DNA from: Ignavibacteriales bacterium
Lineage (GTDB): Bacteria; Bacteroidota; Ignavibacteria; UBA10030
DNA: 64,000 nucleotides
Assembly: GCA_026390585.1 (NCBI GenBank)
Contig: JAPLFP010000365.1
Span: forward strand, 6,768 to 70,767
Direction of reading: 5' to 3'
In this document: positions 22,861-61,112 of the stretch, in pieces
Layout of the letters: every line of letters begins with the position of its first letter
Numbering within the stretch: position 1 is the stretch's first letter
Program-made: the position numbers and the translations under genes
The notes under the pieces: model-generated
Seen by the model: only the letters and a program-made list of their open reading frames with translations
Database searches by the model: none
Told to the model about the DNA's origin: nothing

Positions 22861-22888
22861 GAACAGAGCGGTGAGAGAGCCGCAATTC

Positions 22889-23753: not shown

Positions 23754-23790
23754 GATACCTCCCCGGCCACGAAAACAGTAAGGAAATCCT

Positions 23791-24618
23791 ATGCATCGTC
23801 TTGAATTTGGTATGGTGAGCGATGAAGTCTCGCCCGATTTCAATGAAGCTGCGCGATACTGCGCCGAGTGGGGCATCTCGATCTTCGAGCTGCGTGTTCT
23901 CAAAACCGGACGCATCCCAGCGGTTGAGCTGAGTGAACTGCGGGAAGTCCAGGCGATAGTGAAGAACAATGGGCTGAGGGTCACGGCGTTGTCGCCCGGA
24001 ATCTTCAAGTTGCCCCTATCGCAGACAGCGAAACTCGAAGAGGAACTTACAACCACGTTGCCCAAGACACTCGCTTTGGCACGCGAGTTTGGAGCATCAC
24101 TTGTCATAGTGTTCGGGTTTCAAAGAGAACAGAACGAAAAGCCTGAGATGTTCTCGCGGGCAGTGGATTTCATGTGTCGTGCCGCTGAGAAAGCGGGGAA
24201 GGAAGGAATAAGAATCATCATCGAAAATGAGCCTGGCTTCTGGTGTGATTCTGGCGTCAACACAGCGAAATTGATTCAGAAAGTGGACTCTCCGTACCTG
24301 AGAGCCAATTGGGATCCGTGCAACGGCTACGGCACGGCGGAGCGCCCCTTTCCGGAAGGGTATGAAGCGGTCAAGCAATACATTGCCAACGTGCACGTGA
24401 AAGACACAAAAGAAGGATCGTTGATTCGCTGCGTTCCCGTCGGTGAAGGTGCGGTGGACTGGAAGGGACAGCTCGCGGCTTTAGTGCGGGATCAACTGGT
24501 ACGACACGTAACAATCGAAACGCACTGCCTGCCGTTGGTGGAGAAATCGAAACAGAACGTGGAGACACTGAAAAACTATCTCGCTGAAATCTATCGCCAA
24601 CAGGAGACTGTAGTATGA
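23791..24618 (+). CDS. Sugar phosphate isomerase/epimerase (AP_endonuc_2, xylose-isomerase-like TIM barrel)
   Basis: IENE, WDPCN, HVKD, VPVGEGAVDW, TIETH metal-binding motifs. Confidence 0.85.
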   Translation: MHRLEFGMVSDEVSPDFNEAARYCAEWGISIFELRVLKTGRIPAVELSELREVQAIVKNNGLRVTALSPGIFKLPLSQTAKLEEELTTTLPKTLALAREFGASLVIVFGFQREQNEKPEMFSRAVDFMCRAAEKAGKEGIRIIIENEPGFWCDSGVNTAKLIQKVDSPYLRANWDPCNGYGTAERPFPEGYEAVKQYIANVHVKDTKEGSLIRCVPVGEGAVDWKGQLAALVRDQLVRHVTIETHCLPLVEKSKQNVETLKNYLAEIYRQQETVV

Positions 24619-26598: not shown

Positions 26599-26618
26599 AA
26601 GCACTGTCTGGGCGAACC

Positions 26619-28702: not shown

Positions 28703-28806
28703 CCATGAGACCATCTCGAAGGAAATTTCTCAATACGGCTGCGCTGACAATGGCGGGCGTTGCACTTGCCCCACGAAAGACATTTGCGGCGTACGTTCCA
28801 GACGAC
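28653..28806 (+). repeat. Copy 2 of the 154-nt repeat (oxidoreductase tail plus Tat leader)
   Basis: 129/154 identical to 5837-5990 by manual alignment. Confidence 0.9.
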
Positions 28807-30729: not shown

Positions 30730-30749
30730 TTGAAAAGAGAAGTGATATT

Positions 30750-31997: not shown

Positions 31998-32031
31998 TAT
32001 GCGCACACCCACCCCTAAGGAAAGTAACGCT

Positions 32032-33654
32032 ATGAACAATCGCCTTTACATTGATTCTTACGCGATGATTGGACGGCGCGGCGCAAAGGACATCGAAACG
32101 CGCTACGAGACAGAAGATTTGCTTGAGGAAATGGAGTGGTGTGGCATCCATGGGGCGTTTGTTGCGCACTCGACAGCCAAAGAGTACGATCCGGCGTTTG
32201 GAAACAAACTTCTCCTACGAGAGTTGAAGAAAAGCCCGCGCCTGTACGGTGTCTGGACTGTCATGCCGCATCACACGGGAGAAATGGCAGAGCCGAAAGA
32301 GGTGGTGAAGGAGATGCGCGACCACGGCATACGCGTCGCAAAAATGCATCCGCGCATTCACCGATACCCGTTTACCATGGATTTTTGTGGCGCCCTCCTA
32401 AAGGAGTTGGAGCGAAACGAAATTCTCCTCATGGTTGAAGGCGGACACTTCTACAATCTTGATGTCTTCGAGCCAAGTAATCAAGTTCTACTCTCAGAAC
32501 TTGACACTATTCTCTCGAACTTTCCAAATCTGAAAGTCCTTCTGCAGGGATCGCGCTGGGAATCCACCCGATATACACAGCCGTTGATGAGAAAGCACAA
32601 GAATCTCCATCTCGAGTTGTCGAGCCACCAGGGGAACCGGGCCATGGAGGTTTTTGCTGAATGGTACGGCGCGGACCGCATCCTCTTTGGCACGGGAGCG
32701 TTGGATAAATCACCGGGGGCGGCGAAAGCATTTGTCGATTACTGCACGCTCAACGATGTGGACAAGCAATTAATTGCGGCCGGGAATGTTTCGCGGCTTG
32801 CGAAGCTCGAAACACCGCCGTTTCCTTACAGGGGGCAGAAAAATACCGATTGGATCGTCGAGCGTGCAAAGGAGGGGAAGCCGCTGAAAGAGATCCTCGT
32901 GATCGATTCGCATGCTCACATTGCGCACGACGGTGCTGCCGGTGTTGGATTTATCCATATGCCCTACGGGGACGCAAAAAGCATGGTTGAGCGCGCGAAA
33001 TTGATGGGCATCCGACAAATGTGCGTCAGCAGTTTTCTGGCGATCTGGGCGGATTACGAAGAAGGGAACGAAATTGTCCGGGAAGCCATGAAACGCTACC
33101 CGCAATTCTATCACGGCTACGCGTCCTTTCAGCCGCAGTACGTGAAGAACTGGAAAAAAGATCTGCAGAAAGTGCACGGCAAATGGAAAATGGGGGGATT
33201 GAAACCGTATCATCCTCGCACGAACATTCCTTATAACGACAAACTTTGGGATCCGTGGTACGAATATGGCAATCGTATCAACGCCTATGCGCTCATTCAT
33301 CCCTCACCCAATGTTGTTGAAGAAGTTAATGATATCGCTGCCCGGTATCCAAACATCGCTTTCATCATAGCGCACTGCGGCGGCTCATACCCCGATGCTC
33401 GCAAAGGCATCGAAATCGCCAAGAAGAATCCGAACGTTTATCTGGAAATAACGCTCACCGCAGTGACGTACCGCATTATCGAGTTTATGGTACAGCATGT
33501 CGGTGCCGATCGCGTTTTGTTCGGAACGGATCAGCCGATGCGAGACCCCATACCGCAGTTTGGCTGGATGGCGTATTCCCACTGCACGCCGGAGGAAAAA
33601 GCGAAGATGTTCGGAGCTAATATGCAGAAAATCCTGAAGAGGGTGAAACTCTAG
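32032..33654 (+). CDS. Amidohydrolase with two tandem Amidohydro_2 domains
   Basis: Two repeats ending DRILFGT and DRVLFGTD. IDSHAH in the second domain, IDSYAM in the first. AAGGAAAG lies upstream of ATG 32032. Confidence 0.82.
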   Translation: MNNRLYIDSYAMIGRRGAKDIETRYETEDLLEEMEWCGIHGAFVAHSTAKEYDPAFGNKLLLRELKKSPRLYGVWTVMPHHTGEMAEPKEVVKEMRDHGIRVAKMHPRIHRYPFTMDFCGALLKELERNEILLMVEGGHFYNLDVFEPSNQVLLSELDTILSNFPNLKVLLQGSRWESTRYTQPLMRKHKNLHLELSSHQGNRAMEVFAEWYGADRILFGTGALDKSPGAAKAFVDYCTLNDVDKQLIAAGNVSRLAKLETPPFPYRGQKNTDWIVERAKEGKPLKEILVIDSHAHIAHDGAAGVGFIHMPYGDAKSMVERAKLMGIRQMCVSSFLAIWADYEEGNEIVREAMKRYPQFYHGYASFQPQYVKNWKKDLQKVHGKWKMGGLKPYHPRTNIPYNDKLWDPWYEYGNRINAYALIHPSPNVVEEVNDIAARYPNIAFIIAHCGGSYPDARKGIEIAKKNPNVYLEITLTAVTYRIIEFMVQHVGADRVLFGTDQPMRDPIPQFGWMAYSHCTPEEKAKMFGANMQKILKRVKL

Positions 33655-46904: not shown

Positions 46905-47801
46905 ATGAAGGTTGCTCAGTTTGAAGACTCGCAGGGGTATTGCATCGGCCTCTCAACAAACAGCGGATGGATCAACTATTCTGACGCAGAAGCTGCGTAT
47001 ACTGCCATCACACAGAATGTTATCGTTGAGCCAACAACCACAATTCTCCGGTTGATTGAAGACGGAAGGTTTGATCCTGCCGAGTTCAAAGTTGTTCTGG
47101 GGTTCCTGAAGCAACACAAACTTGAGGCGCACTACTCCATCAGCAAGGAAGCGATTCTCAAGGCCCCCATTCTCCGCCCGCCAAAGATCGTTGCGCTGGG
47201 CCTTAATTACGCGCTTCACGCTAAAGAAGGAAACGCTGCAGTGCCGGCGGAACCAATCATTTTCATGAAAGCGGGTTCATCGGTCATTGGTCCCGGCGAG
47301 GCGATTCTGCTCCCCGGAGGCCTGGGACGCATGGATCACGAAGTGGAATTGGCGGTCATTTTTGGGCGTCGCGCAACAGCGGTGAAGAAAAAAGAGGCGA
47401 TGAAATTTGTCGCCGGCTTCACCATCCTCAACGACGTCACAGCCCGCGAGCTACAGACAAAGGATCTGGAACAAAAGCATCCCTGGTTCAGGTCGAAGAG
47501 TTTTGACACGTTCACTCCCATGGGGCCGTGGATTGTCACTGTGGACGAGATCACTTCACCCATTCGTCTAAGTCTCGAATGCCGCGTCAATGGCAACGTA
47601 CGCCAGAAAGCAAATACGAGTTCGATGGTGTTCGACGTTCCAACGCAGATCGAGTTTATTTCAAAAAACATAACGTTGGAACCCGGCGATGTTCTTTCAA
47701 CCGGTACGCCACAGGGCATTGGACCGATTAAAGATGGAGACGAAGTGCTGTGTCGCATTGAAAAAATCGGTGAATTGAAGAACCCCGTTCGAGATCGATG
47801 A
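46905..47801 (+). CDS. Fumarylacetoacetate hydrolase family protein
   Basis: KIVALGLNY, EPIIFMK, DHEVEL, NDVTAR, KSFDTF.P.GPW, GD.L.TGTP.GIG. Confidence 0.9.
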   Translation: MKVAQFEDSQGYCIGLSTNSGWINYSDAEAAYTAITQNVIVEPTTTILRLIEDGRFDPAEFKVVLGFLKQHKLEAHYSISKEAILKAPILRPPKIVALGLNYALHAKEGNAAVPAEPIIFMKAGSSVIGPGEAILLPGGLGRMDHEVELAVIFGRRATAVKKKEAMKFVAGFTILNDVTARELQTKDLEQKHPWFRSKSFDTFTPMGPWIVTVDEITSPIRLSLECRVNGNVRQKANTSSMVFDVPTQIEFISKNITLEPGDVLSTGTPQGIGPIKDGDEVLCRIEKIGELKNPVRDR

Positions 47802-48901
47802 AGATTGACCAGATTATACTGACGCATGTCCGCATTCCGCTGACCGAGCCGTTCAAAATCAGCAACGGCGAAATCACGGAAAAGGATGCAATTCTCGTGG
47901 GGGTGCACAGCGAAGGCCTCATTGGGTACGGAGAATCCTCGCCAATGTCGGGGTCATTCTATTCTGAAGAGACGCCGGAAAGCGCGTGGGATTGTCTTGT
48001 CGGTGAACTGATCCCCAGATTTCTCCAGTCCCATCCTGCGGGTATCGTGGACGTGAACAATCTCATGAGTCCCATCCCTGGCAATGCATTCGCGAAAGCG
48101 GGGATCGAAACGGCCTTCTGGGATCTTGCCGCACAACAAGAAAACGTTCCGCTAAGCAAGTATCTCGGAGGCAAGCGTAGCCAGGTGGAATCCGGATTGG
48201 CTGTGGGAATCTTTCCTTCGATCAAGGAACTTCTGCTGTCAATCGAAAAGCATCTCATTGAAGGATACAAACGAGTCAAGATCAAGATCCAGCCGGGTTG
48301 GGATGTCAAACCACTTGCGGAGGTCAGATGCATGTTCGGATCGATCCAACTTATGGTGGACGCGAACTGTGCCTACACGCGAGAGGATCTTCCTCATCTC
48401 AGATCATTGGACGATTTTGATTTGATGATGATCGAACAACCGCTTCCGAAGGATGATCTCGAGGGCCATGCACGACTACGGGCCATGAGCCGGACGCCGA
48501 TTTGTCTTGATGAAAGCGCCAAAGATATCCCGACGGTCCAAAGAGCTATCGAACTCAAGAGCTGTGACATTATCAACATCAAGATCCAACGTGTAGGCGG
48601 GCTGCTGAATGCAAAGCGAATGAACGATGTTTGTGCGCAGGCGAGAGTTTCGGTGTGGGGAGGAACAATGCCAGAACTGGGCATTGGCGGTGTGCAGACC
48701 CTTCACCTTTCTACATTGGCCAATTTCAGTTACCCAACGGATGTTGAATCATCGAAACGATGGTTTGTCGATGATATCATCGACCCGTTCATCGAAGTTC
48801 ACGACGGAGTTATTACTCTGCCTGAAGGAAAAGGCAACGGGTATTCGCTGAACACCCGTGCGATCGAGCGGTATAAGGTCCGTGAGCAACAATTCCGGTA
48901 G
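47798..48901 (+). CDS. OSBS/N-acylamino acid racemase-like enolase-superfamily enzyme
   Basis: KIKI, VDAN, IEQP, LDES, NIK..RVGG, G.M.E.GIG (Firmicute-type OSBS/NAAAR pattern). Confidence 0.8.
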   Translation: MKIDQIILTHVRIPLTEPFKISNGEITEKDAILVGVHSEGLIGYGESSPMSGSFYSEETPESAWDCLVGELIPRFLQSHPAGIVDVNNLMSPIPGNAFAKAGIETAFWDLAAQQENVPLSKYLGGKRSQVESGLAVGIFPSIKELLLSIEKHLIEGYKRVKIKIQPGWDVKPLAEVRCMFGSIQLMVDANCAYTREDLPHLRSLDDFDLMMIEQPLPKDDLEGHARLRAMSRTPICLDESAKDIPTVQRAIELKSCDIINIKIQRVGGLLNAKRMNDVCAQARVSVWGGTMPELGIGGVQTLHLSTLANFSYPTDVESSKRWFVDDIIDPFIEVHDGVITLPEGKGNGYSLNTRAIERYKVREQQFR

Positions 48902-48940
48902 CATGCTCTGATCGTGTCAGAGGAGCGGAGAAACGGAAAC

Positions 48941-50725
48941 ATGAAATTAGTGAAATTCAGAAGAATCGTAACGCTCACATGTGCATTGGTGCTGGTGGGA
49001 ATCATGAATACACGCGGACAACAAAGTACATGGGTTGACTCGACACTTGCCTCCATGACGCTCGAAGAGAAGGTCGGGCAACTCTTCGTTGCGGACCTCG
49101 TTGCAGTCTTTTCAAACAGGGAAAGTCCAAACTTCCAGCTGGCGCTTGAGTGGGTTCGCAAGTACCACGTAGGAGGTTTTGTTCTCGCCGGCGGAATTGT
49201 GACAGATATTGCTTTGATGACAAACGCTCTTCAGCGTGAATCCAAAATACCACTTCTCATCAACGGCGACTTGGAGGGAGGACTTTGGTTCAATCACCCG
49301 TACCGCTGGCAGAGGGGGAGAGCCCCGGAGTTGCCGAAGTTCATAGGCGGTGGAGGCACATCGCTACCATCCCTGATGGCCATCGGTGCGACTGGAAATC
49401 CCCGATATGCCTACGAATTTGGCAGAATAACGGGCGAAGAAGCTCGTGCGGTTGGCATTCATTGGACGAACTCCCCGGTTGCCGACGTAAACATCAATCC
49501 CAACAATCCCATTATCAACACAAGATCATTTGGCGAGGATCCGACTGAAGTCGCGAGAATGGTCGAGGCATACGTACGGGGGGTGCAGTCAGCCGGACTG
49601 ATGGCGACGGTGAAACACTTCCCGGGACATGGGGACACGCAAGAAGACACCCACATGAAGTTGCCGTTGCTGCCGTTCGACCGCGCGAGGCTTGATTCGG
49701 TAGAATTTGTTCCGTTCGAAGCCGGCATCAAAGCGGGAGTAAAATCAGTGATGACAGCCCACATAGCGCTGCCGAAGGTTGATCCGGTGAAACGCCCTTC
49801 CACGCTCTCACCTGTGATAATAACGGAGATTCTCCGCGGATCATTGGGCTTCAATGGTATTGTTGTCACCGATGGAATGACCATGCAGGGGGTGACGGAC
49901 AACAATACACCCGATGAAGCGGCGGTCAAAGCGATTGAGGCAGGTGTCGATGTGGTTCTGGTTCCGGAAGATTTTGCCAAAGCGTACGATGGTGTGCTTC
50001 GCGCAGTGAAGTCGGGTCGCATTTCGTCGCAACGTCTGGATCAATCGGTGCGTCATCTCCTTGAGGCAAAGATGTGGGTCGGACTCGGACAGCAACGGTT
50101 GGTAAATATTGAGGAAATATCGAACATCGTTGCCTCACCAAAGGCAGAAGTGATCGCGGACTCCATGTTCAGAGATGCTGTTACCCTTTTGAGAAACGAG
50201 GGGCACGTCGTGCCTCTCAAGAAAAAAGCACGAGTACACATCGTGTCAATCACGGATGAACCCGATTTCATTGTCGGTGAGGCGTTGGGCGAGGTGGTAC
50301 AAAGTGGTATACAGTCTGCAACGATTTCGCGACTTTGGAACGGCTCGAGCAAAGAAACGATTGATCAGATCACAACGCAGCTTCGGAATGCGGATATGGT
50401 TGTGTTGGGAGTGTACGTCTCCATTGGTGCCTGGAAAGGTGAAAACAAGTTCTCCGCGGATTTGCAGGCTTTCTTCAAAAAACTCTCCCGCAGCAAGAAA
50501 CCTGTCATCACGATCGCGTTTGGCGATCCCTATGTATTGGGCAGGATGCCTTTGGGCGATGGCATGATCGCAGCCTACGCAGGCTTGCGCAAATCTGAAG
50601 AAGCTGTCGGCAGAGCACTTATTGGTACGGCGGAGGTGCTTGGGAGACTGCCGGTGACGATTCCCGGAAAGTTCAAACGCGGCGATGGAATTCATCTGAT
50701 GCCGGCACAGAGATCAGGGAAATAA
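48941..50725 (+). CDS. GH3 beta-N-acetylhexosaminidase (NagZ-like), secreted
   Basis: Signal peptide; NTRSFG.DP, KHFPGHGDTQEDTH, VVTDGM.M. Confidence 0.87.
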   Translation: MKLVKFRRIVTLTCALVLVGIMNTRGQQSTWVDSTLASMTLEEKVGQLFVADLVAVFSNRESPNFQLALEWVRKYHVGGFVLAGGIVTDIALMTNALQRESKIPLLINGDLEGGLWFNHPYRWQRGRAPELPKFIGGGGTSLPSLMAIGATGNPRYAYEFGRITGEEARAVGIHWTNSPVADVNINPNNPIINTRSFGEDPTEVARMVEAYVRGVQSAGLMATVKHFPGHGDTQEDTHMKLPLLPFDRARLDSVEFVPFEAGIKAGVKSVMTAHIALPKVDPVKRPSTLSPVIITEILRGSLGFNGIVVTDGMTMQGVTDNNTPDEAAVKAIEAGVDVVLVPEDFAKAYDGVLRAVKSGRISSQRLDQSVRHLLEAKMWVGLGQQRLVNIEEISNIVASPKAEVIADSMFRDAVTLLRNEGHVVPLKKKARVHIVSITDEPDFIVGEALGEVVQSGIQSATISRLWNGSSKETIDQITTQLRNADMVVLGVYVSIGAWKGENKFSADLQAFFKKLSRSKKPVITIAFGDPYVLGRMPLGDGMIAAYAGLRKSEEAVGRALIGTAEVLGRLPVTIPGKFKRGDGIHLMPAQRSGK

Positions 50726-50727
50726 TC

Positions 50728-51750
50728 ATGTCGCTAACAACCACATTTGTTGGTTTGACGTTGCAGAGCCCTGTGATTGTTGCCTCCGGCCCGGCGAGCC
50801 ACGACGTGAACCAGATTCGACTCGCCCAGGAGCAGAAAGCAGGAGCTGTCGTACTCAAGACGGCGTGTTCGGACAAGTACATCCACATGCGCTCCTGGCC
50901 GCGGCCCCGGTACAAACTGCTCGATTGGGATAAACAAATCGCTGGTCGCTCCAAGGCATTCAGCCTGTATGCATACGAGCAAGGATACAGTGGAACGCTT
51001 GAAGATTATTGGCAATTCATCAAGGTCTGCAAAAAGCACGCTTCAGTCCCGATCATCGGAAGTATTTTCGCGGACGAAGCTCACGAGTGGAAAGAAATGG
51101 CGGTGAAGGTTGAACAAAGCGGCGCAGATGCGATCGAACTCGACATTTCTTCACCGCATCGCCCGGGGAGTCTGGGATTTGAGAAAACGTTTGTTGCGGC
51201 GATCAAGGCAGTCGTTTCTGCGGTGAAGTTTCCAGTGCTCGTCAAACTCTCTCCCGGACCGGACGTCGTCCAGCAGTCCATCAGTGCGCAGGAATGCGGG
51301 GCAAAGGCTGTAACGCTTTGTAATCGACTTCGCGGCGTCGATGTGGATATTGAAAACCAACGACCAATTCTCCATGGCTACTTTGGAGGTATTGGTGGAC
51401 CCTGGGCGAAGTACTACACATTTCGACACGTGGCTGAAGCGGCACAGGCTGTCTCGATCCCCATTAGTGGGACAGGGGGAACGATGAGCGGGGAGGATGT
51501 CATAAAGTATATCATGCTTGGGGCAACAACAGTGCAGATCCTCTCCGTCATCATGATCAACGGGTGGGAATCGATCGGGCGAATCAACGGGGAGATCGAG
51601 CAGCACATGAAACAGAAGGGGATTTCTTCGCTCGATCAGATTCGGGGCAAAGCGCTTGAGTCTATGACCTACCCCGATGAAATTATCCGCTGGTCAGGGG
51701 AGTCGAAAAAAGGCCCCAGGAACACATGGAACGAGGAAAAGAGCGAGTAG
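50728..51750 (+). CDS. Dihydroorotate/dihydropyrimidine dehydrogenase-like FMN protein with an atypical active site
   Basis: PVIVASGP, GAVVLKT, IIGSI, ELDISSPH, LVKLSP, ISGTGG, GATTVQI. Confidence 0.8.
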   Translation: MSLTTTFVGLTLQSPVIVASGPASHDVNQIRLAQEQKAGAVVLKTACSDKYIHMRSWPRPRYKLLDWDKQIAGRSKAFSLYAYEQGYSGTLEDYWQFIKVCKKHASVPIIGSIFADEAHEWKEMAVKVEQSGADAIELDISSPHRPGSLGFEKTFVAAIKAVVSAVKFPVLVKLSPGPDVVQQSISAQECGAKAVTLCNRLRGVDVDIENQRPILHGYFGGIGGPWAKYYTFRHVAEAAQAVSIPISGTGGTMSGEDVIKYIMLGATTVQILSVIMINGWESIGRINGEIEQHMKQKGISSLDQIRGKALESMTYPDEIIRWSGESKKGPRNTWNEEKSE

Positions 51751-51767
51751 TGCGTAGGCTGAGAGCA

Positions 51768-52097
51768 ATGGACAACGAACAAGCAAAATACCCGGGACTG
51801 CCTCCGCTTCCACCTCCATTTGTCAAGGATTTCCCGCCGGTTGCGGTGGTCGTAGAGGAGAAGTGTATCGCCTGTGACCGATGTCCGCCTCTCTGCTTCT
51901 TCGATGCAATCGTGATGGAACTCCGTCCCGCGCACAAATACAAGAGGACAGCAGTTGTCATCACCGAAAATTGCACCGGTTGCGGGTTGTGTTTTGAAGC
52001 TTGTCCTGTTGACGCATTTGTATGGGTTCCCGATAAGAAGCCGGGCGCCAGGCCCTCGAAGGCAACAGGCGAATCTGAAAGAGACCTGAGTGCATGA
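51768..52097 (+). CDS. 2x[4Fe-4S] dicluster ferredoxin-like protein
   Basis: CIACDRCPPLC and CTGCGLCFEACP. Confidence 0.88.
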   Translation: MDNEQAKYPGLPPLPPPFVKDFPPVAVVVEEKCIACDRCPPLCFFDAIVMELRPAHKYKRTAVVITENCTGCGLCFEACPVDAFVWVPDKKPGARPSKATGESERDLSA

Positions 52098-52711
52098 GAG
52101 TCGTTGATCTGACACATCCGATTACATCTGAAATCCCGGTTTATTTTCCATGGCATCCACCGACTGTGCTGGAACGTACGGCGACCTATAAGGAAAATCG
52201 GTGCGAAGTACGCAGGCTGAGTATCGGCACACACAGTGGGACGCACATCGACGCTCCGAGTCATGTCCTCGAGGGGAAACCAACACTCGACGAATATGAT
52301 CCGGGGCTTTGGTACATCGATGCGCAGGTTCTTGATTTCACTCCGCGGGATCCGGGGAAAGAAATTTTGCGGGAGGAGGTGGCGGCGAAGCTCAAAACGA
52401 AAGGCGTTGGAGTGGTCATAAAAACAGGCTGGGATGCGGAGTTCGGAAAGAAAGACTACTACAAGAGCTATCCTCCGCTGAGCACATATGCCGCAGAATT
52501 TCTTGTCGAGATGAATGTCCCCGTCGTTGCCGCCGATACACCGTACACACTTGATGTGCACTATGTGCTTCTGAACCACGGTATTCCCCTGGTGACGAAC
52601 CTGAACAATACCGGGCAACTGAAAGAAGGAATGATCAAACTCATCGCGGCGCCATTGCTCATTAAAGGTAGCGACGGAGCTCCGGCACGCGTCTTGGCGG
52701 TCATCGAATAG
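52094..52711 (+). CDS. Cyclase-family (KynB-like) metal hydrolase
   Basis: VDLTHP, HSGTHIDAPSH, GSDGAPARV.A. Confidence 0.85.
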   Translation: MRVVDLTHPITSEIPVYFPWHPPTVLERTATYKENRCEVRRLSIGTHSGTHIDAPSHVLEGKPTLDEYDPGLWYIDAQVLDFTPRDPGKEILREEVAAKLKTKGVGVVIKTGWDAEFGKKDYYKSYPPLSTYAAEFLVEMNVPVVAADTPYTLDVHYVLLNHGIPLVTNLNNTGQLKEGMIKLIAAPLLIKGSDGAPARVLAVIE

Positions 52712-52719
52712 AAGATCCA

Positions 52720-53847
52720 ATGGAAGCGGCCACAAAACTCCTTTCTGATCTTGTAGCGATTCCCAGCATGAACCCCATGGGGCGCGGCCGCATGGGGAAG
52801 GAATATTGTGAGCAGTCGATTGCAGAGTTTGTCGCAGAGTTCTTGAGGAAAGCATCGATCGATGCTGAGTTACAGCAAGTCTCTCCCGGCAGGCCGAACG
52901 TCATTGGCTCTGTTTCCGTTGGTGCTCAGGAAACGCTCATGCTGGAGGCACACCTTGATACCGTCTTTGCGGATTCAATGTTGATTGATCCCTTTGACCC
53001 CATCATTCGCGATGGGAAACTCTACGGACGAGGAGCGTGCGACACGAAAGGCTCAATTGCAGCTTTCCTGCAAGCTGTGGTCAATTCGCTAAAGGCTGTA
53101 AAGAACATGCGCTATAACGTTCTTTTGCTCTTTGTCTCTGATGAAGAGTACCGTTTTGCGGGTGCCCAATATGCTGTTCGCCATGGTCTGAAAACCGACT
53201 TTGGTATTGCTGGCGAACCTACACAGCTCAGAATTGTGCGAGCCCACAAGGGAGTGACGCGTTGGAAGATCCTCACGCAAGGAGTCGCTGCTCACTCTGC
53301 CTATCCGGAGAGAGGAAAAAATGCAATTTATGCCATGGCGAAAGTCATTGAAAAGCTGCAACAGTATGCAGAAGAACTAAGCACTGGACCCCTTCATCAG
53401 TTGTTGGGAACCCCATCGCTGAGTGTTGGCGTCATCGAAGGTGGGCAGGCGGTAAATGTCGTTCCCGATCATTGCTGGATTGAAATCGACCGACGCACAC
53501 TTCCCGGTGAAACAACACAAAGTGTTCTTGAGCCGATCCATTCCCTTCTCAATGATCTTGAAGGATGCGAAATACGAGAACCGCATCTCTCTGTGGCAGG
53601 AATGGAAGTTGCCGACTACGCTCCCATTGTTCAAGACTTGGCTCAAGCGGTACGATCGGTATGCGGAGATGCTATCGTGGAAGCGGCACACTATGCGACG
53701 GATGCCGGCATCTACAATTCAGTTGGCGTGCCGACGGTGGTATTTGGGCCTGGGAACATCGCCCAGGCACACACAGAGTCTGAGTATATCGAGCTTCAGC
53801 AACTTCACCAGGCAACTACAATTATCGAAAGGTTCCTAACATCGTGA
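52720..53847 (+). CDS. M20 (ArgE/DapE-like) N-acyl amino acid hydrolase
   Basis: HLDTV, YGRGACDTKG, DEE, GEPT, HKG, AHS, GPG.I.QAH...E. Confidence 0.88.
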   Translation: MEAATKLLSDLVAIPSMNPMGRGRMGKEYCEQSIAEFVAEFLRKASIDAELQQVSPGRPNVIGSVSVGAQETLMLEAHLDTVFADSMLIDPFDPIIRDGKLYGRGACDTKGSIAAFLQAVVNSLKAVKNMRYNVLLLFVSDEEYRFAGAQYAVRHGLKTDFGIAGEPTQLRIVRAHKGVTRWKILTQGVAAHSAYPERGKNAIYAMAKVIEKLQQYAEELSTGPLHQLLGTPSLSVGVIEGGQAVNVVPDHCWIEIDRRTLPGETTQSVLEPIHSLLNDLEGCEIREPHLSVAGMEVADYAPIVQDLAQAVRSVCGDAIVEAAHYATDAGIYNSVGVPTVVFGPGNIAQAHTESEYIELQQLHQATTIIERFLTS

Positions 53848-54755
53848 TTCTCGGCCTGGACATCGGCGGTACAAAAACAGCGGTTGTTGTCGGAACAACG
53901 CGCGGGCAGATTCGCTGGCGAAAGCAATTTCCCACAATGCCTGAGCGTGGATTTCCACCAGTCTTTGCAGAGTTATCTGCATCGATACGGGAAGCTCTTT
54001 CTGGTTCACCCGAGCGAGTCGAAGCTATAAGCGTCTCGATTGGCGGTCCGCTAAACGTGCTGGAGGGGATTGTTCAATCCCCCCCGAATCTGCCTGGATG
54101 GGACAACATTCCGTTGAAGCGTCTCCTCAAAGAACAATTCGCCCTTCCCGTGTACGTGGAGCACGATGGAAATGCAGGTGCGCTTGCGGAGTTCTATTTT
54201 GGGGCTGGGAAAGGACATCGAAATATCGTTTTCCTCACGATGGGAACGGGATTTGGGGCGGGTCTGATACTCGATGGAAAACTCTATCGCGGGACAAGTG
54301 ATACGGCAGGAGAGATCGGCCACATCCGCATTGCAGAGGATGGACCGCTTTGCTATGGAAAGGCAGGATCATTGGAGGGATTTGGCAGCGGAACCGGAAT
54401 GGCAAAGCTCGCCCATACGATGTTCCCGAGGGTTTGGGGAGAAGCGACCACCATCTTGGAAGTGTACACATCGTTCACCCAGGGCTCATCAGAAGCACGT
54501 CAGGTATTCGAGCGCGTGGGATTCTCGTTGGGGCGTGCGTTTGCGATGCTTGCCGACCTGCTAAATCCGGAGCAGATTATTCTTGGAGGACTTGGAATGA
54601 GGATTGGCGACGCATTCCTTCCAAAGGCCGAAGAGATCTTTCAATTGGAAGCTCTTCCGCAGACGAGGCACGCATGCAAGATTGTCCCGGCACAACTGGG
54701 CGAGCACATCGGAGATGTCGCTGCTCTCTGTGCTGCCCTCAATCAGGGAGCATGA
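53844..54755 (+). CDS. ROK-family sugar kinase
   Basis: GLDIGGTK, EHDGNAGALAE, TMGTGFGAG, AGEIGH, GSLE. Confidence 0.9.
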   Translation: MILGLDIGGTKTAVVVGTTRGQIRWRKQFPTMPERGFPPVFAELSASIREALSGSPERVEAISVSIGGPLNVLEGIVQSPPNLPGWDNIPLKRLLKEQFALPVYVEHDGNAGALAEFYFGAGKGHRNIVFLTMGTGFGAGLILDGKLYRGTSDTAGEIGHIRIAEDGPLCYGKAGSLEGFGSGTGMAKLAHTMFPRVWGEATTILEVYTSFTQGSSEARQVFERVGFSLGRAFAMLADLLNPEQIILGGLGMRIGDAFLPKAEEIFQLEALPQTRHACKIVPAQLGEHIGDVAALCAALNQGA

Positions 54756-54826: not shown

Positions 54827-57070
54827 ATGACCAAAATCAGCAGAGTGATCTTCCTCAGTCTTGTTTGCATTGGTTCGGCGTTGTCCCAGAAGGCTCTCTA
54901 TCTGGAACAAATAAAGAACGCAGCAGAACAAGGATGGCGTGACAATCCCCGCATCATTGAACAATGGAAACGCGACTACAAACCAAGCATTCTCTGGGGA
55001 TACAACTCTCCAGGCTATCCGGTCTATCTTGCTGGAACCCTGGGATTTCTGTATGAAGTAACAAAGGATGAAGCATACGCACGGCGAACGGCGGAATTGC
55101 TGTTGTCGTATGGTGAGCTCCGAAACTCGTATCCGAAAGATTACTGGAAAACACGCGCGGAGTATGTCAATGGTATTCCCGCGATTTCAAATTTCTTCTT
55201 CATGCCGCCGTACATTCGGGCATATCTCAGAATCCGGACTAGCAATGTTTTGAATGAGCAGTCGCGTCGAACAATCGAAGAAGACATTGCAGGAAGCGCG
55301 GACTTCGTCTTCTTCTTTCCGGAATGGGGGACGCACAACAGAGCCATGCTTCGAGCCGAGGCCTTGATCTACGCAGCGCAAGCTCTTCCTCATCATCCGC
55401 ACGCCACAAAGTGGAAACAGATGGCCAAGGTTTTGGCGGACGACAGCATGAAGCAGTGGGAAATTGAAGATGCGACGGTGTACCATCCGGTGTGGCTTAC
55501 AGCCCTCTATTCATATGCTGATGCATCCGCTCAACCCGAATTGTTCGATTCACCGTTGACGAAATATTATCAGCAATACTTTCTAAAACTCATTGGTCCT
55601 CATGGCATCGTGCCGGAATTTGGTGATGCACGGTGGACCTCAGCCCTTGAAGGCTTGCGGTTTGTGGCAATCTTCGAAAAGGGAGCCGCAGTCTACAAAG
55701 ATCCGGAACTCAAGTGGGCAGCCAAGAGCACATTCGAAGCCGCGAGAAAAAATAATTCCCCGCTCGGTGTCGGTGAGGCGTACTATCTCTCTGACGCATA
55801 TCGTTGGGCGGACGAATCTGTTCAACCGAAACAACCAAAGAGCTTGTCGCAGGAAGTTCTGGAAGATGTTGTCGGCAAGAAAATCGTCTTCCGCAACGGA
55901 TGGGAACCTTCGAGTACCTATATGCTCCTCAACTACCGGGATGAAGGGGATGGAGGGTGGACGCACCGTGAGTTTCTTCGACAGACGATCTCTGTCGAGG
56001 AGGAGAAAATGACCCACGGGCATGCGGACGAGAACAGTATCCCCCTGCTCATGAGCGAGGGTTCCGTCCTTCTGCATGACGCTGACTACCGGAGCGATTT
56101 GCCGAGCGGCCCCTACGGTGCCTGGCGGCAGGACTACTTCCACAACCGGCTTGTTGCGCGATCAGGCAAGCGGGATAGCCATCAGGGACTTCTGGAGTTC
56201 GTTCAAAACTCCGGTGCATATCGTGCGGTCAGAACCCAGAAGATCGATTTCCTGAACCTCAAGGAAGTCGACATGAGCCGGACGAGGGTCATCGACGAAG
56301 ATCTCGGGTATCAATCCGATCGGGTTATCACCTATGTCAAGGAAGAGAACTGGTTTGTGGTTGTCGATGCCGTGAAGATCCTTCGGTCTGGCTACTACAC
56401 ATTCTCGACTATGTGGCATGCGCTGAATCTGCTGGCAAAAGGGAAAGACTACTTCGATGTTGCAACAGACTCCATCCCGGGATCTAAATTCCCCACAAAC
56501 TGTTCGCTTCTCATGGTTTTTCCGGAAACGTATGCGAAAACCATCGGTGTCGAACCGATATCGCGAAGCAACCAGAAAGAAAACGCAATCTATCAAACGA
56601 TTTCGAGTCAATACAAAGCAGGTGATACAGAATTGTTTGTGACCGTGCTCATTCCCCATCGACGTGGAGTGAAGATCGAGAATTTGAAATCCAGAATCAA
56701 ACTCGTGGACGTTACCGCTCCGTATCGGGCTCTTGGGCTTCAACTCGACCGCGGAGACCGCACATCCTCTCTCTGTGTAAAAATCGATCAGACCATGGAT
56801 ATTGCGAGGGAGAACATACGTCCTCGGTATCTTTATGCTCTCGGCAAGGTCGGTTACGGTGACTTTGAAACAGACGCGCATTACATGTTCGCGACTGTCA
56901 GTAAGAATAGTGTCACGTACTCTGCCTCCAATGTTCTTAAGGTTCTTTACAAAGGAAAGCCTCTGATGGAGGCGTTGGCGAACGCGCACGGTTTACAGCT
57001 TGATGGATCACCAGATCGGGTCGGTTATGTTAAGTGGAGATATTGGGAAGACACTGTTGAACAGAAATAG
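54827..57070 (+). CDS. Secreted heparinase II/III-like (lyase-fold) protein
   Basis: Signal peptide ends SALS/Q; PEFGD, IVFRNGW, HGHADENS..L...G..LL.D. Confidence 0.6.
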   Translation: MTKISRVIFLSLVCIGSALSQKALYLEQIKNAAEQGWRDNPRIIEQWKRDYKPSILWGYNSPGYPVYLAGTLGFLYEVTKDEAYARRTAELLLSYGELRNSYPKDYWKTRAEYVNGIPAISNFFFMPPYIRAYLRIRTSNVLNEQSRRTIEEDIAGSADFVFFFPEWGTHNRAMLRAEALIYAAQALPHHPHATKWKQMAKVLADDSMKQWEIEDATVYHPVWLTALYSYADASAQPELFDSPLTKYYQQYFLKLIGPHGIVPEFGDARWTSALEGLRFVAIFEKGAAVYKDPELKWAAKSTFEAARKNNSPLGVGEAYYLSDAYRWADESVQPKQPKSLSQEVLEDVVGKKIVFRNGWEPSSTYMLLNYRDEGDGGWTHREFLRQTISVEEEKMTHGHADENSIPLLMSEGSVLLHDADYRSDLPSGPYGAWRQDYFHNRLVARSGKRDSHQGLLEFVQNSGAYRAVRTQKIDFLNLKEVDMSRTRVIDEDLGYQSDRVITYVKEENWFVVVDAVKILRSGYYTFSTMWHALNLLAKGKDYFDVATDSIPGSKFPTNCSLLMVFPETYAKTIGVEPISRSNQKENAIYQTISSQYKAGDTELFVTVLIPHRRGVKIENLKSRIKLVDVTAPYRALGLQLDRGDRTSSLCVKIDQTMDIARENIRPRYLYALGKVGYGDFETDAHYMFATVSKNSVTYSASNVLKVLYKGKPLMEALANAHGLQLDGSPDRVGYVKWRYWEDTVEQK

Positions 57071-57091: not shown

Positions 57092-58030
57092 ATGGTAACG
57101 ACGATAACATTGAATCCCATGCTTGACAAAACGATCTACGTTGATCGGTTGGAGCGCGGGACGATTCATCGTGCGTTGAAAATGGAAATGGTCGCCGGAG
57201 GGAAGGGGATCAATGTGTCGCGCCAGCTCAAGCGCCTGGGAATCAATACCATAGCAACGGGGTTCCTGGGAGGAGAAGTTGGCTCCATCGTGTTACGATT
57301 GTTGACGGAGGAATCGATGGAACACGACTTCGTTCGCACACAAGCGGCGACACGCGAAGGGCTCACCTATCTCGAGCCTGATGGGGCATGGACGGCAATG
57401 TTTGAGCCTCCGCTCCGCGTTGAGCAGTCGTCTGCTCACGAACTAAGCAGAAAGATTGGTGAACTTGCCTCGAAGAGCACCTGGATTGTGTGTGGTGGAA
57501 GCTCACCGGGCGATGAGGCCGATGAAATTTTTTATGAGGCCATTGTTCTTGCCCATCGTAACGGAATTTCGAGTGTGCTCGATTCTTACGGTCGTGCGTT
57601 TGAGCTTGGACTGAAAGCAAAACCTACGATGGTCAAGCCAAACAAGCGCGAATTCGAAATGACGTTTCACCAATCTCTGACAACAGAATCGGACCATGTC
57701 CGCGCGGTCCAATTCCTACTGGAACAAGGCGCCCAGTACAGTATCCTCACCAATGGCGGTCATATGTTCTACGCCGGAATCCAGGGACACTTCTGGAAAG
57801 TAACGCCGCCCCCGACGAAAGCGGTGAACCCCACCGGCTCGGGAGATGCTCTCGTGGCCGGGATTCTGTATGGATTTCATCAGGGTTGGAAGTTCGAACG
57901 GTGTCTTGCATTCGGCGCAGCGGCGGGAGCGGCAAACGCCCGCGTATGGGAAGTCGCGAACACAAATCTTCAGGAAATCTTGTCACTTGAATCGAGTGTC
58001 AAAATTCAACGAGTGAGTGTTAAGAAATGA
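57092..58030 (+). CDS. 1-phosphofructokinase-type (FruK/LacC) PfkB hexose kinase
   Basis: TITLNP.LD, GGKGINVS, VKPNKRE, NPTGSGDA. Confidence 0.88.
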   Translation: MVTTITLNPMLDKTIYVDRLERGTIHRALKMEMVAGGKGINVSRQLKRLGINTIATGFLGGEVGSIVLRLLTEESMEHDFVRTQAATREGLTYLEPDGAWTAMFEPPLRVEQSSAHELSRKIGELASKSTWIVCGGSSPGDEADEIFYEAIVLAHRNGISSVLDSYGRAFELGLKAKPTMVKPNKREFEMTFHQSLTTESDHVRAVQFLLEQGAQYSILTNGGHMFYAGIQGHFWKVTPPPTKAVNPTGSGDALVAGILYGFHQGWKFERCLAFGAAAGAANARVWEVANTNLQEILSLESSVKIQRVSVKK

Positions 58031-59058
58031 ACAGAAGATTTGAGCAGGCCTTGAATTGCGAAGCTCCGGATCGGATACCATTCCTGCCGGCGATCTATGA
58101 ACACAAGGCATGGTTTGTCGGAGAAACTCCATCGAAAGTATGCCAAGACTCTCAGCTCTTCACAACCGCACTTCTGGCCGAGTATGAGCGCGTGCATCCG
58201 GACGCGCTGACAATCGGAATTGATGTCTACAATGTGGAGGCGGAGGCGATCGGATGCAAGGTGATCTACTATGAGGGGAACGATACGTCGGTTCCCGCGA
58301 TAGCACCTGAGGGCGTGGTTTTTCGAGGCTCGAAAGAGGTTGCATCGCTCAAAATGCCTGATCCCCGAAAAGACGGCAGAATGCCCCTGAACCTCGAGGT
58401 CGCCGGCAACATCATGAAAGTTCTCGGCAAAGAAGTGCCGATTCGAGCGGCCCTTTCAGGACCACTCTCACTTGCGGCACACTTGGCCGGACTGGAGAAT
58501 CTCTTCATGCTTATGTTTACCCAGCCCGATCTTGCACGCGAGCTTCTCGGTTTTGCCTGCGAAGTGATCAAGCGATATGGTCAAGCCTTTATTGAACTCG
58601 GCTGCGGTGTTGTGCTTTTTGATTCTCAAGCTTCCCCCGATTTACTCTCGCCACTTTTGTACCGTGAGTTTGTTCTCCCGAGGACGCGCGCTCTGATTGA
58701 ACACTTCCACCAGCAGGGAGTCAGGAACGTCCCTCTGATTATCGGGGGGAATACGACGAAAATGCTGGATGAATACCTCGAAACCGGTGCGAATAACGTG
58801 TTGTGTGACAAGAAAGCAGATGTAAAGGAGTTTTTGCACAAGTGTTCCGCTGCCCGTAGAGCATTCAGGCGCAATATGGATTCCACTGACTTTGCGACGA
58901 TCTCTTCTGAAGATGTTTATCGCCGCACAGTAGATTGTCTGAAGGAATCAAACGGCTATCCTGGATTCATCCTTGGCACGATCATACTACCGTACGGAAC
59001 ACCGCTCTCGGCTCTCGCTGCAATCCGGAGCGCACTTCAGGAATACAAACATTCGTAA
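58027..59058 (+). CDS. URO-D/MtaA-CmuA-like methyltransferase-superfamily protein
   Basis: DRIPFLP, EAEAIG, DGRMP..LE, GP.SLAA.L.G.E, DS.AS..LLSP..YREF..P. ATGA overlap with the kinase gene. Confidence 0.8.
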   Translation: MNRRFEQALNCEAPDRIPFLPAIYEHKAWFVGETPSKVCQDSQLFTTALLAEYERVHPDALTIGIDVYNVEAEAIGCKVIYYEGNDTSVPAIAPEGVVFRGSKEVASLKMPDPRKDGRMPLNLEVAGNIMKVLGKEVPIRAALSGPLSLAAHLAGLENLFMLMFTQPDLARELLGFACEVIKRYGQAFIELGCGVVLFDSQASPDLLSPLLYREFVLPRTRALIEHFHQQGVRNVPLIIGGNTTKMLDEYLETGANNVLCDKKADVKEFLHKCSAARRAFRRNMDSTDFATISSEDVYRRTVDCLKESNGYPGFILGTIILPYGTPLSALAAIRSALQEYKHS

Positions 59059-59074
59059 GTCGGACTAGGGCCCT

Positions 59075-59719
59075 ATGAAAGAATTGCTTGATCTTGCGCA
59101 GCTTCTGGAGCAAGGACAGTCACAGAAGGTGTTGACGTTGACGCAGCAGCTCGTAGACTCAGGGCTCTCTCCGCAGACCATTCTCAATGAAGGATTGATT
59201 GCCGGGATGGCAGTGGTCGGGGAAAAGATGCGGAACGGAGAAATGTACTTGCCTGAAGTTCTGCAATCTGCCGGTGCGATGAAGGCTTCATTGGCGATAC
59301 TGAAGCCGCATCTTGCCCGGGAAGGGACGGCATCGCGTGGGAAAATTCTGATCGGAACAGTGAAAGGTGACATGCACGATATTGGAAAGAACCTGGTCAC
59401 CATCATGCTGCAGGGAGCGGGCTTCGAGGTCATCGATATCGGTCTCAACGTGGAGCCGCAGAGATTTGTTACGGCGATCACCGAACACACACCGGCAGTC
59501 CTCGGCTTATCGGCGATGTTGACAACGACAATGTTGAACATGAAAACCACGATCGAGGCCATTGCGAGCGCGGGGCTTCGGTCTCAGGTAAAGATCATCA
59601 TTGGAGGTGCGCCTGTCAGTCAGAAATTTGCAGATGAGATCGGTGCCGACGGTTATTCACGTGATGCAGTCCTTGCTGTTAACAAAGTAAGACAATTGAT
59701 GGGCCATACCTCTTATTAG
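59075..59719 (+). CDS. mtaC: Corrinoid (B12-binding) protein, MtaC-like
   Basis: GEMYLPEVL cap domain, GTVKGDMHDIGKNLV (DxHxxG), SAMLTTT, IIGGAP. Confidence 0.85.
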   Translation: MKELLDLAQLLEQGQSQKVLTLTQQLVDSGLSPQTILNEGLIAGMAVVGEKMRNGEMYLPEVLQSAGAMKASLAILKPHLAREGTASRGKILIGTVKGDMHDIGKNLVTIMLQGAGFEVIDIGLNVEPQRFVTAITEHTPAVLGLSAMLTTTMLNMKTTIEAIASAGLRSQVKIIIGGAPVSQKFADEIGADGYSRDAVLAVNKVRQLMGHTSY

Positions 59720-59738
59720 CGCGGATAGAACACTTCAA

Positions 59739-61112
59739 ATGCAAAAGACGTTCAAGACGCTCGCGATTCCTGATCCACAACAACTCATGTTTGGTCGTAC
59801 GCCGAAACCGCTGATCTGCGGCTTCGGGCTCAAACTAGGGAACGGCCAGGTCTATCCAGAACTCAATTTCACACTTCCCACCATGGCGTTGGAAGAAACA
59901 AACTGGGCAGCCGTTGTCGCTCAATATGAAGAAATTGGATCGATCATTGAACGGGCAGCGGCGAGACTGAAACCACCAGGGCTGATGGCAGAGTTCGAGC
60001 TCTTGCCTCCGATGACCGAACATCCATCGTGGGGAGCCGAACTGACTTCGGTGCTGCTGCGGCACCTCGACCAGCTGCATAAGGATACTGGTATTCCGTG
60101 TGCCTTGCGCGTTACTCCAACGGATATCAGGGATGTGACGAAACCTCCCGAGCTCAGGTCTGGAAAACCGCTCGAGTTGCTGCTGCAGTCGTTTGAACAG
60201 TGTGCAGCAGCGGGTGCCCATGTGCTCTCGATAGAATCGGTCGGCGGCAAGGAAGTCCATGATGAAGCGCTGCTCTACGGAGACATTGAAGGGGTGATCT
60301 TTGCGCTCGGCGTCCTTGCGTCGAGGGATATGGAATTCCTCTGGGAAAGAATCGTCGCCACATGTTCAAAATACAACGTTGTGCCGGGTGGCGATTCAGC
60401 GTGTGGCTTTGCTAACACGGCAATGCAACTGGCGGGACAGGGAATGCTCCCGGAAGTACTCGCGTCTGTCGTGCGGGCTGCAAGTTCTGTTCGCAGCCTT
60501 GTGGCGTATGAATGTGGGGCATATGGACCGTCGAAAGACTGTGCCTATGAAGGTCCGGTGATCAAGGCAATTACGGGGGCACCGATTGCCATGGAGGGAA
60601 AATCAGCAAGCTGTGCGCATTTTAGTCCCGTGGGGAACGTCGCAGCGGCAATGTGCGATCTGTGGAGTAATGAATCGGTACAGAATGTGAGATTGCTTTC
60701 GGGTCCCGCCCCCGAGGCCTATTTTGAACTACTCGTCTATGACTGCCGACTCTTCAATCAGGCCCTTGAGACAAAAACAGAAAACGTGTATCAGAATCTT
60801 CTTGTCTCGTCCGATATCCATTTGAGCCCTCAAGCATATGTGTTGTCGCCCGAATCGACGATACGAATTGCATCGACCGTTGTGCGTGAGACGGGCCACT
60901 ATGCACAAACGCTTGCGGCAGCCAGAGAGGCTGCGTCTCTCTTGCGTGAAGGAGTGCAACAGGAAGAGCTTCAGTTAAACTCACGCGAAACCGAATGGTT
61001 GGAAAGAATCACGCGGGAATTGAATGCCCTTCCTGCGGACGAGCATCAAATGATTATTACCATGCAGGAGCGATATGGACATCTTTTCACAGCCAACAGT
61101 TACGGTTTGTGA
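59739..61112 (+). CDS. mtaB: Methanol:corrinoid methyltransferase MtaB family
   Basis: SIESVGGKEVHD, GVLASRDM.FLW, GDSACGFANTA, GPSKDCAYEG, EGKSA.CAH.S, DLWSNESV. Confidence 0.9.
   Translation: MQKTFKTLAIPDPQQLMFGRTPKPLICGFGLKLGNGQVYPELNFTLPTMALEETNWAAVVAQYEEIGSIIERAAARLKPPGLMAEFELLPPMTEHPSWGAELTSVLLRHLDQLHKDTGIPCALRVTPTDIRDVTKPPELRSGKPLELLLQSFEQCAAAGAHVLSIESVGGKEVHDEALLYGDIEGVIFALGVLASRDMEFLWERIVATCSKYNVVPGGDSACGFANTAMQLAGQGMLPEVLASVVRAASSVRSLVAYECGAYGPSKDCAYEGPVIKAITGAPIAMEGKSASCAHFSPVGNVAAAMCDLWSNESVQNVRLLSGPAPEAYFELLVYDCRLFNQALETKTENVYQNLLVSSDIHLSPQAYVLSPESTIRIASTVVRETGHYAQTLAAAREAASLLREGVQQEELQLNSRETEWLERITRELNALPADEHQMIITMQERYGHLFTANSYGL

Follow-up and report, generated by a model that had tools for sequence, protein, structure and literature searches.

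A serine-loop, PreA-like flavoprotein and its stand-alone ferredoxin in a conserved gene module of Ignavibacteria

Here we describe a gene cluster of an Ignavibacteriales bacterium, carried on contig JAPLFP010000365.1 (assembly GCA_026390585.1) within a 64-kb window, the term used below for the whole stretch of DNA that was analysed. The subject is a flavoprotein of the dihydroorotate dehydrogenase (DHOD) fold, called the SSPH flavoprotein after its active-site loop, together with the ferredoxin encoded directly behind it. Both belong to a row of eight close-packed genes on the + strand (46905-54755), whose stops and starts overlap or nearly abut:

46905-47801, + strand: FAH-family hydrolase/decarboxylase/isomerase (PF01557, 239 bits), the first gene of the conserved core.
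47798-48901, + strand: NSAR/OSBS-family protein of the enolase superfamily (MR_MLE), matching TIGR01928 and the structure 1R0M.
48914-50725, + strand: exported GH3 glycosidase with a NagZ-like N-terminal domain (PF00933, PF01915; signal peptide).
50728-51750, + strand: DHO_dh-fold flavin mononucleotide (FMN) flavoprotein of the SSPH clade (P0001, 340 residues; PF01180).
51768-52097, + strand: stand-alone 2x[4Fe-4S] ferredoxin (P0002, 109 residues; Fer4_21, Fer4).
52094-52711, + strand: cyclase-fold (KynB/isatin-hydrolase-like) metal hydrolase, a Thr168 variant (P0003; PF04199).
52720-53847, + strand: ArgE/DapE-family M20 deacylase (P0004; TIGR01910).
53844-54755, + strand: ROK-family sugar kinase (PF00480, 190.8 bits).

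The SSPH flavoprotein matches PF01180 with 120.2 bits (gathering score 27; 1.3e-34), and its best sequence match in the PDB is Lactococcus lactis DHODB (88 bits). An AlphaFold model, generated from a 62-sequence alignment, had a pLDDT of 92.2 and a pTM of 0.90, and a Foldseek search with this model retrieved domain IV of pig dihydropyrimidine dehydrogenase (DPD) and the DHODB and DHODA structures at template-modelling (TM) scores of 0.76-0.80; the predicted fold can be considered secure. The FMN-site residues K44, K173, G221-G224, G250-G251 and G265 align with those of DHODB, and most of them are invariant or nearly so in the alignments. The active-site loop, taken from the translation of 50728-51750, is AIELDISSPHRPG, with E137, D139, S142 and H144. 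It aligns on IELNISCPN of L. lactis DHODB and ELNLSCPN of DHODA, as well as on EINVSCPN and ECSFSCPQ of the pyrD and PreA products of the same genome, and the consensus of the relatives at this loop is EL(N/D)xSCP(N/H). An earlier reading of the locus, made from the sequence alone, had held that ELDISSPH stands in place of ELNxSCP(N/H), with an Asn and the catalytic Cys replaced, and the alignments with DHODB, DHODA, pyrD and PreA bear this out. Further marked residues are N199, R200 and R202, where R200 takes the place of the Ser/Thr that otherwise follows the conserved Asn.

The same reading described the active site as rewired. Class 2 DHODs use a Ser as the catalytic base at this loop position (PMC8520639), so that Ser142 represents no loss or defect. 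Asp139 is common to part of the Cys-bearing sister clade, and therefore, of the Asn and Cys replacements, only that of Cys by Ser is specific to the SSPH clade. The protein scores under every NCBIfam cut-off: those of the pyrD models NF005574 (171.3 against 269) and TIGR01037 (161.7 against 270), of the PreA model NF006183 (147.3 against 335), of the PRK07565 model NF005741 (179.1 against 303), with whose members only the N-R motif is held in common, and of the best class 2 DHOD model (47 against 366), where the matches are weak and partial.

A word-indexed search with the SSPH flavoprotein yielded 439 relatives; the best 120 of these are all at least 70% identical to it, and the taxon-named ones among them are metagenome-assembled genomes (MAGs) of Ignavibacteria or Bacteroidota. 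A scan of the genome collection yielded 54 loci with 57-95% identity from the Ignavibacteria/Ignavibacteriota and the Kryptonia/Kryptoniota, besides distant matches. The loop, in the form ELD(I/F)SSPH(R/K)PG, is present in all 54 loci, LCNR is invariant, and the motif LYSYEQGYSG has minor variants only, wherever that stretch is intact. An in-frame TGA lies within the DHOD-like gene at L037/G037:C16, and a garbled stretch stands in place of the LYSYEQ motif at L070; either may reflect sequencing error or local decay. The loop Cys is present in every homologue of 42% identity or less. Maximum-likelihood analysis unites the Ser proteins in one group (100/99), which sits inside a clade (100/98) whose other members, namely P0126, P0127, P0128, P0135 and an archaeal protein, have the Cys and a fused ferredoxin. 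The SSPH protein thus has a single derived origin within a Cys-bearing, ferredoxin-fused clade. In protein P0125 (56% identity) the Ser is present and the ferredoxin is still fused; the Cys-to-Ser change therefore preceded the split of barrel and ferredoxin. S142 and R202 are among the positions specific to the Ser clade, and N199-R200 is common to a much larger 'N-R' branch that includes PRK07565. Across 121 sequences, at least 97% invariance was observed at 131 of the 340 positions, including S142 and R202, and the SSPH flavoprotein is under purifying selection. A pseudogene or a decayed active site is excluded by these invariant positions and the fixed motif.

The ferredoxin contains the motifs CIACDRCPPLC and CTGCGLCFEAC; no other CxxCxxCxxxC motif occurs in the window, whichever frame is read. 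It matches positions 335-403 of the PreA model, being equivalent to the C-terminal domain of PreA. The description of the [4Fe-4S] dicluster as a separate next gene was accurate, as both Cys motifs fall in this reading frame. The start is most likely at 51768, to judge from the 109 residues called in the relatives; the alternative at 51726 would overlap the flavoprotein gene. The ferredoxin is a separate downstream gene in 51 of the 54 loci, with both Cys motifs kept in all 51, and the fused form is confined to P0125 and the sister clade. The earlier reading had noted no PreT or PyrK partner in the window, and neither Fer4_20 (PreT/GltD) nor the PyrK Fe-S domain was found anywhere on its contig; nor does the operon at any related locus hold a PreT-, PyrK- or other Fe-S/flavin reductase gene. 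Genome-wide, the PyrK-type Fe-S domain (PF10418) is matched only on contigs C265 and C377, and Fer4_20 only on C184, beside the true PreA, and on C72. Distant relatives on a different branch of the tree (36-40% identity) are fusions of DHOD, Fer4_20, Pyr_redox_2 and Fer4, and the barrel is therefore served through an Fe-S wire elsewhere in the family. The simplest partner for the split and the fused two-domain forms alike would be the general ferredoxin pool.

A profile search of the assembly with PF01180 gave matches at five places. Contig C363 carries a class 1B pyrD that is truncated where the contig ends (257 bits over half of the model), contig C184 (L003) a true PreA with fused ferredoxin (439 bits), adjoined by a GltD/PreT-like gene, and contig C301 (L004:1228-2238) a true DHOD-like member of PRK07565 (493.5 bits). 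On C184, YgeW, a knotted carbamoyltransferase, completes a row with the GltD/PreT-like gene and PreA; an M20 homologue lies some 3 kb beyond, and the arrangement resembles an anaerobic purine/urate-type set. On C301, the uncharacterised PRK07565 gene, which has the N-R motif, directly follows the gene for pyruvate:ferredoxin oxidoreductase and precedes that for malic enzyme. With pyrD/pyrK, PreA/PreT and PRK07565 on other contigs, the SSPH gene is excluded as the only pyrD or preA of the genome. The sequence-only reading had treated the flavoprotein as a non-pyrimidine paralog, a view that would have fallen had this been the only pyrD; it stands, given the separate canonical pyrD on C363, the PreA/PreT pair and the missed NCBIfam cut-offs. 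It is very unlikely that the flavoprotein is a variant dihydroorotate or dihydropyrimidine dehydrogenase, with the cyclase as a ring-opening amidohydrolase and the M20 enzyme as a carbamoyl-amino-acid hydrolase, although the fold and best PDB matches are those of DHODB and DPD, Ser can act as the base in class 2 DHOD, and M20 enzymes include carbamoylases. The canonical systems in the genome are complete, the equivalog cut-offs are all missed widely, Asp stands at the equivalent of Asn127/Asn668, and Arg has taken the place of the Ser/Thr behind the conserved Asn. Moreover, most genomes of the order lack the gene, which was found in 9 of the 301 genomes of the phylum sample, all of one order, and it lies inside a glycan-degradation locus.

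The proteins of the window were compared with the 54 loci by tblastn, which revealed a recurring gene order: FAH, MR_MLE, (GH3), flavoprotein, ferredoxin, cyclase, M20 and (ROK), usually followed by a 747-residue protein, PfkB and URO-D. The MR_MLE gene stands directly upstream of the flavoprotein gene, the GH3 gene aside, in 45 of the 54 loci, and eight of the nine others are contigs cut short. The ferredoxin is present in 51 loci, the cyclase in 45, the M20 gene in 41 and the ROK gene in about half, and FAH is syntenic in most. The proposal that flavoprotein, ferredoxin, cyclase and M20 hydrolase act as one module therefore gains from their conservation as a unit, but as first drawn it left out its two most constant partners, the NSAR/OSBS racemase and the FAH enzyme upstream, and the GH3 gene was not recognised as an insert. 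This gene occurs only in part of the Ignavibacteria loci, being absent from the others and from Kryptonia, and is thus a late, lineage-specific insert. The sequence of steps in the first proposal, with reduction or oxidation, ring opening and then deacylation, and its substrate, a heterocycle or unsaturated acid set free from the glycan, are conjectural.

Within the window, the stop of the FAH gene overlaps the start of the NSAR/OSBS-family gene, and the starts of the cyclase and ROK genes overlap the stops of the ferredoxin and M20 genes, respectively; in a scan for promoters and terminators, the signal was no higher than background. The ROK kinase matches the glucokinase and N-acetylmannosamine kinase models in part, all under cut-off. 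Single genes have been inserted at two related loci, an SSF symporter between flavoprotein and ferredoxin (L028:2115-3908) and a GFO_IDH_MocA-like oxidoreductase between ferredoxin and cyclase (L050:1212-2249). In the Kryptoniota-type loci an SSF symporter lies directly upstream of FAH, and the best specific matches of the symporter, which are weak, are PutP and PanF. The sister locus L010 comprises ABC permeases, a DegT aminotransferase, a cyclase, FAH (51% identical to that of the window), MR_MLE, ADH and the flavoprotein-ferredoxin fusion. On an archaeal contig the fusion stands beside a cyclase and a LivJ-type ABC system; at L088 a LivJ-type ABC system, the fusion, a DHDPS-family gene and an MR_MLE gene (40% identical, with NIK(V/I)QRVGG) occur together; and L089 has the fusion, a cupin and a DHDPS-family gene. 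Judged by sequence, these PutP/PanF-like SSF and LivJ-like ABC transporters speak for an acid of amino-acid type more than for a neutral sugar.

The NSAR/OSBS-family protein scores 271.8 bits against TIGR01928 (cut-off 200.65) and 264 bits over its full length against 1R0M, the N-acylamino acid racemase of Deinococcus radiodurans. It has KIK at 161-163 and NIKIQRVGG at 260-268, with K262 and with R265 as the second-shell Arg; this Arg (R266 in the Amycolatopsis enzyme) has been discussed as important for racemase activity (bioRxiv 10.1101/2022.03.03.481873). The genome has three NSAR/OSBS paralogs, and no MenB passes its cut-off. The other two paralogs (C51:3204-4304 and C8:31928-33031; L087, L086) score 371 and 351 bits. 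Behind one of them lie genes for an Amidohydro_3 protein and an amidase, and the other stands after large BNR/T9SS-tailed proteins and before a GntR/LacI-type regulator; the Amidohydro_3 family of Pfam includes D-aminoacylases. The subfamily residues, the three paralogs, the lack of MenB and the paralog beside Amidohydro_3 and amidase genes favour a racemase role over one in menaquinone synthesis. The protein is thus unlikely to be the MenC of the genome and, judged by its sequence, is likely an N-acylamino acid racemase.

The cyclase, which is the sole PF04199 protein of the genome (93.5 bits; arylformamidase TIGR03035, 56.9 against a cut-off of 223), retains H47-x3-H51-x-D53 and His156 and has Thr168 (PLVTNL) at the position occupied by Glu in KynB and two further solved homologues; the HxGTHxD motif and the Thr in place of the ligand Glu had been correctly picked out from the sequence. 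The Thr is invariant in all 45 loci with the gene, and the cyclases beside Cys-type flavoproteins (L010 and the archaeon) keep the Glu. The Glu was hence lost on the same lineage on which the flavoprotein exchanged Cys for Ser, a co-change that fits two enzymes handling related compounds. The M20 protein, identified as a hydrolase at the outset, scores 258.6 bits against TIGR01910 (cut-off 217.6) and has all six of the ArgE/DapE residues intact (H78, D108, E142, E143, E166 and H351), these being invariant in 41 loci; its nearest solved structure is Escherichia coli ArgE (7RSF). The nearest solved structures of the FAH protein are HpaG/HpcE, FAHD1 and L-2,4-diketo-3-deoxyrhamnonate hydrolase.

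In DHOD and DPD, a hydride passes between N5 of FMN and the carbon to which N1 and the carboxylate are attached (C6 in the case of uracil), and a proton passes between the loop Cys or Ser and the neighbouring carbon. NSAR-type enolases turn the alpha-carbon of an N-acyl carboxylate into a carbanion, at which they can racemise or eliminate. From the folds, motifs, cofactor-binding residues, synteny, clade structure and paralog inventory observed, we infer the direction of reaction, the order of steps, the substrate and the electron partner as follows. The products of 50728-51750 and 51768-52097 would form a split PreA-type enzyme, an FMN TIM barrel with a two-cluster [4Fe-4S] wire that swaps electrons with a partner encoded elsewhere, most simply the ferredoxin/flavodoxin pool of the cell. 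By analogy with DHOD and DPD, the hydride would move between FMN N5 and a carbon bearing a carboxylate and an N (or O) substituent, with Ser142 as the proton relay, as is the Ser in class 2 DHODs. The substrate would be an N-substituted (N-acylated or cyclic-amide) alpha-carboxylate, and the conservation of R200, R202 and R/K145 suggests that it carries an extra negative charge. Since flavoprotein and NSAR-type enolase are constantly adjacent, the two may share the alpha-carbon of such an acid, at which the enolase of this cytoplasmic module would invert or eliminate. The Thr-variant cyclase and the M20 enzyme could each hydrolyse one amide bond, and the FAH enzyme could cleave, decarboxylate or tautomerise the resulting oxo-acid towards pyruvate-type products. 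We assign a probability of about 0.5 to this reading, that of a split PreA-type, ferredoxin-linked FMN oxidoreductase that acts on an N-substituted carboxylate at its alpha-carbon, in a module for racemisation, hydrolysis and cleavage.

The module is interleaved with exported lyase-like and glycoside hydrolase genes. Directly after the M20/ROK genes in most loci, and in Kryptonia too, comes the exported 747-residue protein (54827-57070 in the window), which is without a Pfam match and which the protein atlas assigns as a heparinase II/III-like lyase (0.99). It is followed at 58027-61112 by genes for a URO-D-like (MtaA-type) protein, a B12-binding corrinoid protein and an MtaB-family methyltransferase (520 bits), which in this non-methanogen belong to a glycan-degradation operon, keep their synteny with the module in many relatives, and may serve corrinoid-dependent demethylation of a methylated sugar or another methyl ether. 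Further upstream in the window, 21515-28702 encodes a LarA-like protein (lactate racemase family), IclR, a xylose-isomerase-like TIM barrel, DUF4432 and GFO_IDH_MocA, and 28699-33654 a heparinase II/III-like protein, a class III aminotransferase and an Amidohydro_2 protein.

These surroundings are the ground for another reading, in which the flavoprotein is an ene-reductase of the C4=C5 bond of a lyase-made 4,5-unsaturated uronate, or of its 3-keto or amidated derivative; such a uronate is the O-analogue of the N1-C6(COO-)=C5 unit of orotate. The heparinase-like protein is interleaved in the operon, PfkB kinases are present that could be KDG kinases, and a GFO_IDH_MocA-like gene lies between ferredoxin and cyclase in L050. 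We consider this rather unlikely, because the NSAR-type racemase and the ArgE/DapE deacylase would be left without a role, the linked transporters are PutP/PanF-like or LivJ-like and not of sugar type, and the sister contexts in the archaeon and L088 are not glycan loci. Ordinary GH88/GH105 and KduI genes elsewhere in the genome serve the standard route, and there is therefore no obvious gap for an unsaturated-uronate reductase; a missing step in unsaturated-uronate use is unsupported.

Kryptonia proper have a different arrangement, consisting of a 747-residue homologue, a DHDPS-family gene, IclR, MR_MLE, flavoprotein and ferredoxin. The DHDPS-family protein is nearest to DapA, under all cut-offs, and no deaminase model was matched. 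Bacterial hydroxyproline pathways have the same three-part layout, and DHOD takes a hydride from a carbon bearing N and COO-. The module could on these grounds belong to a hydroxyproline-like pathway for a cyclic imino acid, with MR_MLE as 2-epimerase or dehydratase, the flavoprotein-ferredoxin pair as D-imino-acid dehydrogenase or dehydro-imino-acid reductase, and DHDPS as pyrroline-hydroxy-carboxylate deaminase. The trio of MR_MLE, flavin/Fe-S dehydrogenase and DHDPS recurs in Kryptonia (L066), L088 and L089, with 54% identity between the DHDPS proteins of L066 and L089, and the transporters are LivJ-type ABC and PutP-like SSF systems. [quoted passage not shown] Such a pathway is improbable.

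Several points also weigh against the N-substituted carboxylate oxidoreductase that we prefer. Cyclase, M20 and FAH were not found near the Kryptonia loci, and the amide-hydrolysis steps are therefore not universal. No acetyltransferase domain, as would mark a GNAT acyltransferase, occurs among the annotated genes of the operon or its relatives, and no dedicated electron partner emerged from synteny, from the Fer4_20 and PyrK domains or from the Cys-motif scan of the window. The NSAR assignment is one of family membership, and by its sequence the enzyme could be a dehydratase. The joint appearance of Ser and Thr is a single event on a single branch and is without statistical weight. The glycan context fits a sugar-derived substrate equally with an amino-acid-like one, and no characterised member, solved structure or paper on the SSPH clade was found in literature and database searches; the literature on 6-hydroxynicotinate reductase, on cyclase-family relatives (8HMO) and on DPD C671S likewise offered nothing of use.

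More tentatively, the module may constitute a cytoplasmic route not described so far. It would handle an N-acylated or cyclic-amide acid released from a complex acidic glycan, possibly an enamide derived from an N-acetylhexosaminate or an amino-acid-amidated uronate, and in it the DHOD/DPD fold would have been recruited to a non-pyrimidine substrate. To our knowledge, enzymes of the DHOD/DPD family are known only for pyrimidine chemistry, the fumarate acceptor of class 1A excepted; if this tentative route exists, the SSPH module puts the fold to physiological use outside pyrimidines. The SSPH clade and its racemase partner mark a reaction that is likely new to the DHOD as well as to the NSAR family. 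Within the large glycan-degradation loci of Ignavibacteria and Kryptonia, here groups known from MAGs only, the module stands for a cytoplasmic step without an explanation so far. The wider 'N-R / YSxEQ' branch has many architectures and appears to lack a characterised member, so that a single solved function would annotate many proteins.

As far as we know, the composition of the module has not been described previously, and its parts can be compared with several known systems. PreA and domains IV-V of DPD (E. coli PreTA; pig DPD, 1H7W) likewise consist of an FMN TIM barrel followed by a 2x[4Fe-4S] module, have a His after the loop Pro (SCPH and SSPH, respectively) and provide the best structural match; in the SSPH system barrel and ferredoxin are separate genes without a PreT partner, and Cys671, Asn668 and Thr737 of DPD are replaced by Ser, Asp and Arg. 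With class 1 DHODs (L. lactis DHODB, 1EP3, and DHODA, 2DOR) the flavoprotein has in common the FMN Lys and Gly motifs and the xPxPR loop, and it differs in the Ser for Cys, an altered set of substrate-binding Asn residues, a 20-residue insert containing LYSYEQGYSG and the lack of PyrK. Class 2 DHODs also have Ser at the base position (PMC8520639), but the SSPH flavoprotein belongs to a different branch and begins at the first barrel strand, without an N-terminal membrane/quinone domain. The cyclase keeps the fold, the HxGTHxDxPxH motif and the second His of KynB and isatin hydrolase (PF04199), whereas the second-zinc Glu is Thr in all 45 orthologues and no tryptophan-pathway genes lie nearby. 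NSAR and an M20 desuccinylase are a known natural pair (bioRxiv 10.1101/2022.03.03.481873), and the operon for conversion of D- to L-amino acids in Geobacillus kaustophilus, composed of a GNAT succinyltransferase, NSAR and an M20 L-desuccinylase, resembles the present module in uniting an NSAR/OSBS racemase with an M20 enzyme. Unlike that operon, the module described here has no GNAT gene, the flavoprotein, ferredoxin and cyclase genes intervene between racemase and M20 enzyme, a FAH gene precedes them, and the whole is set in a glycan-degradation locus.

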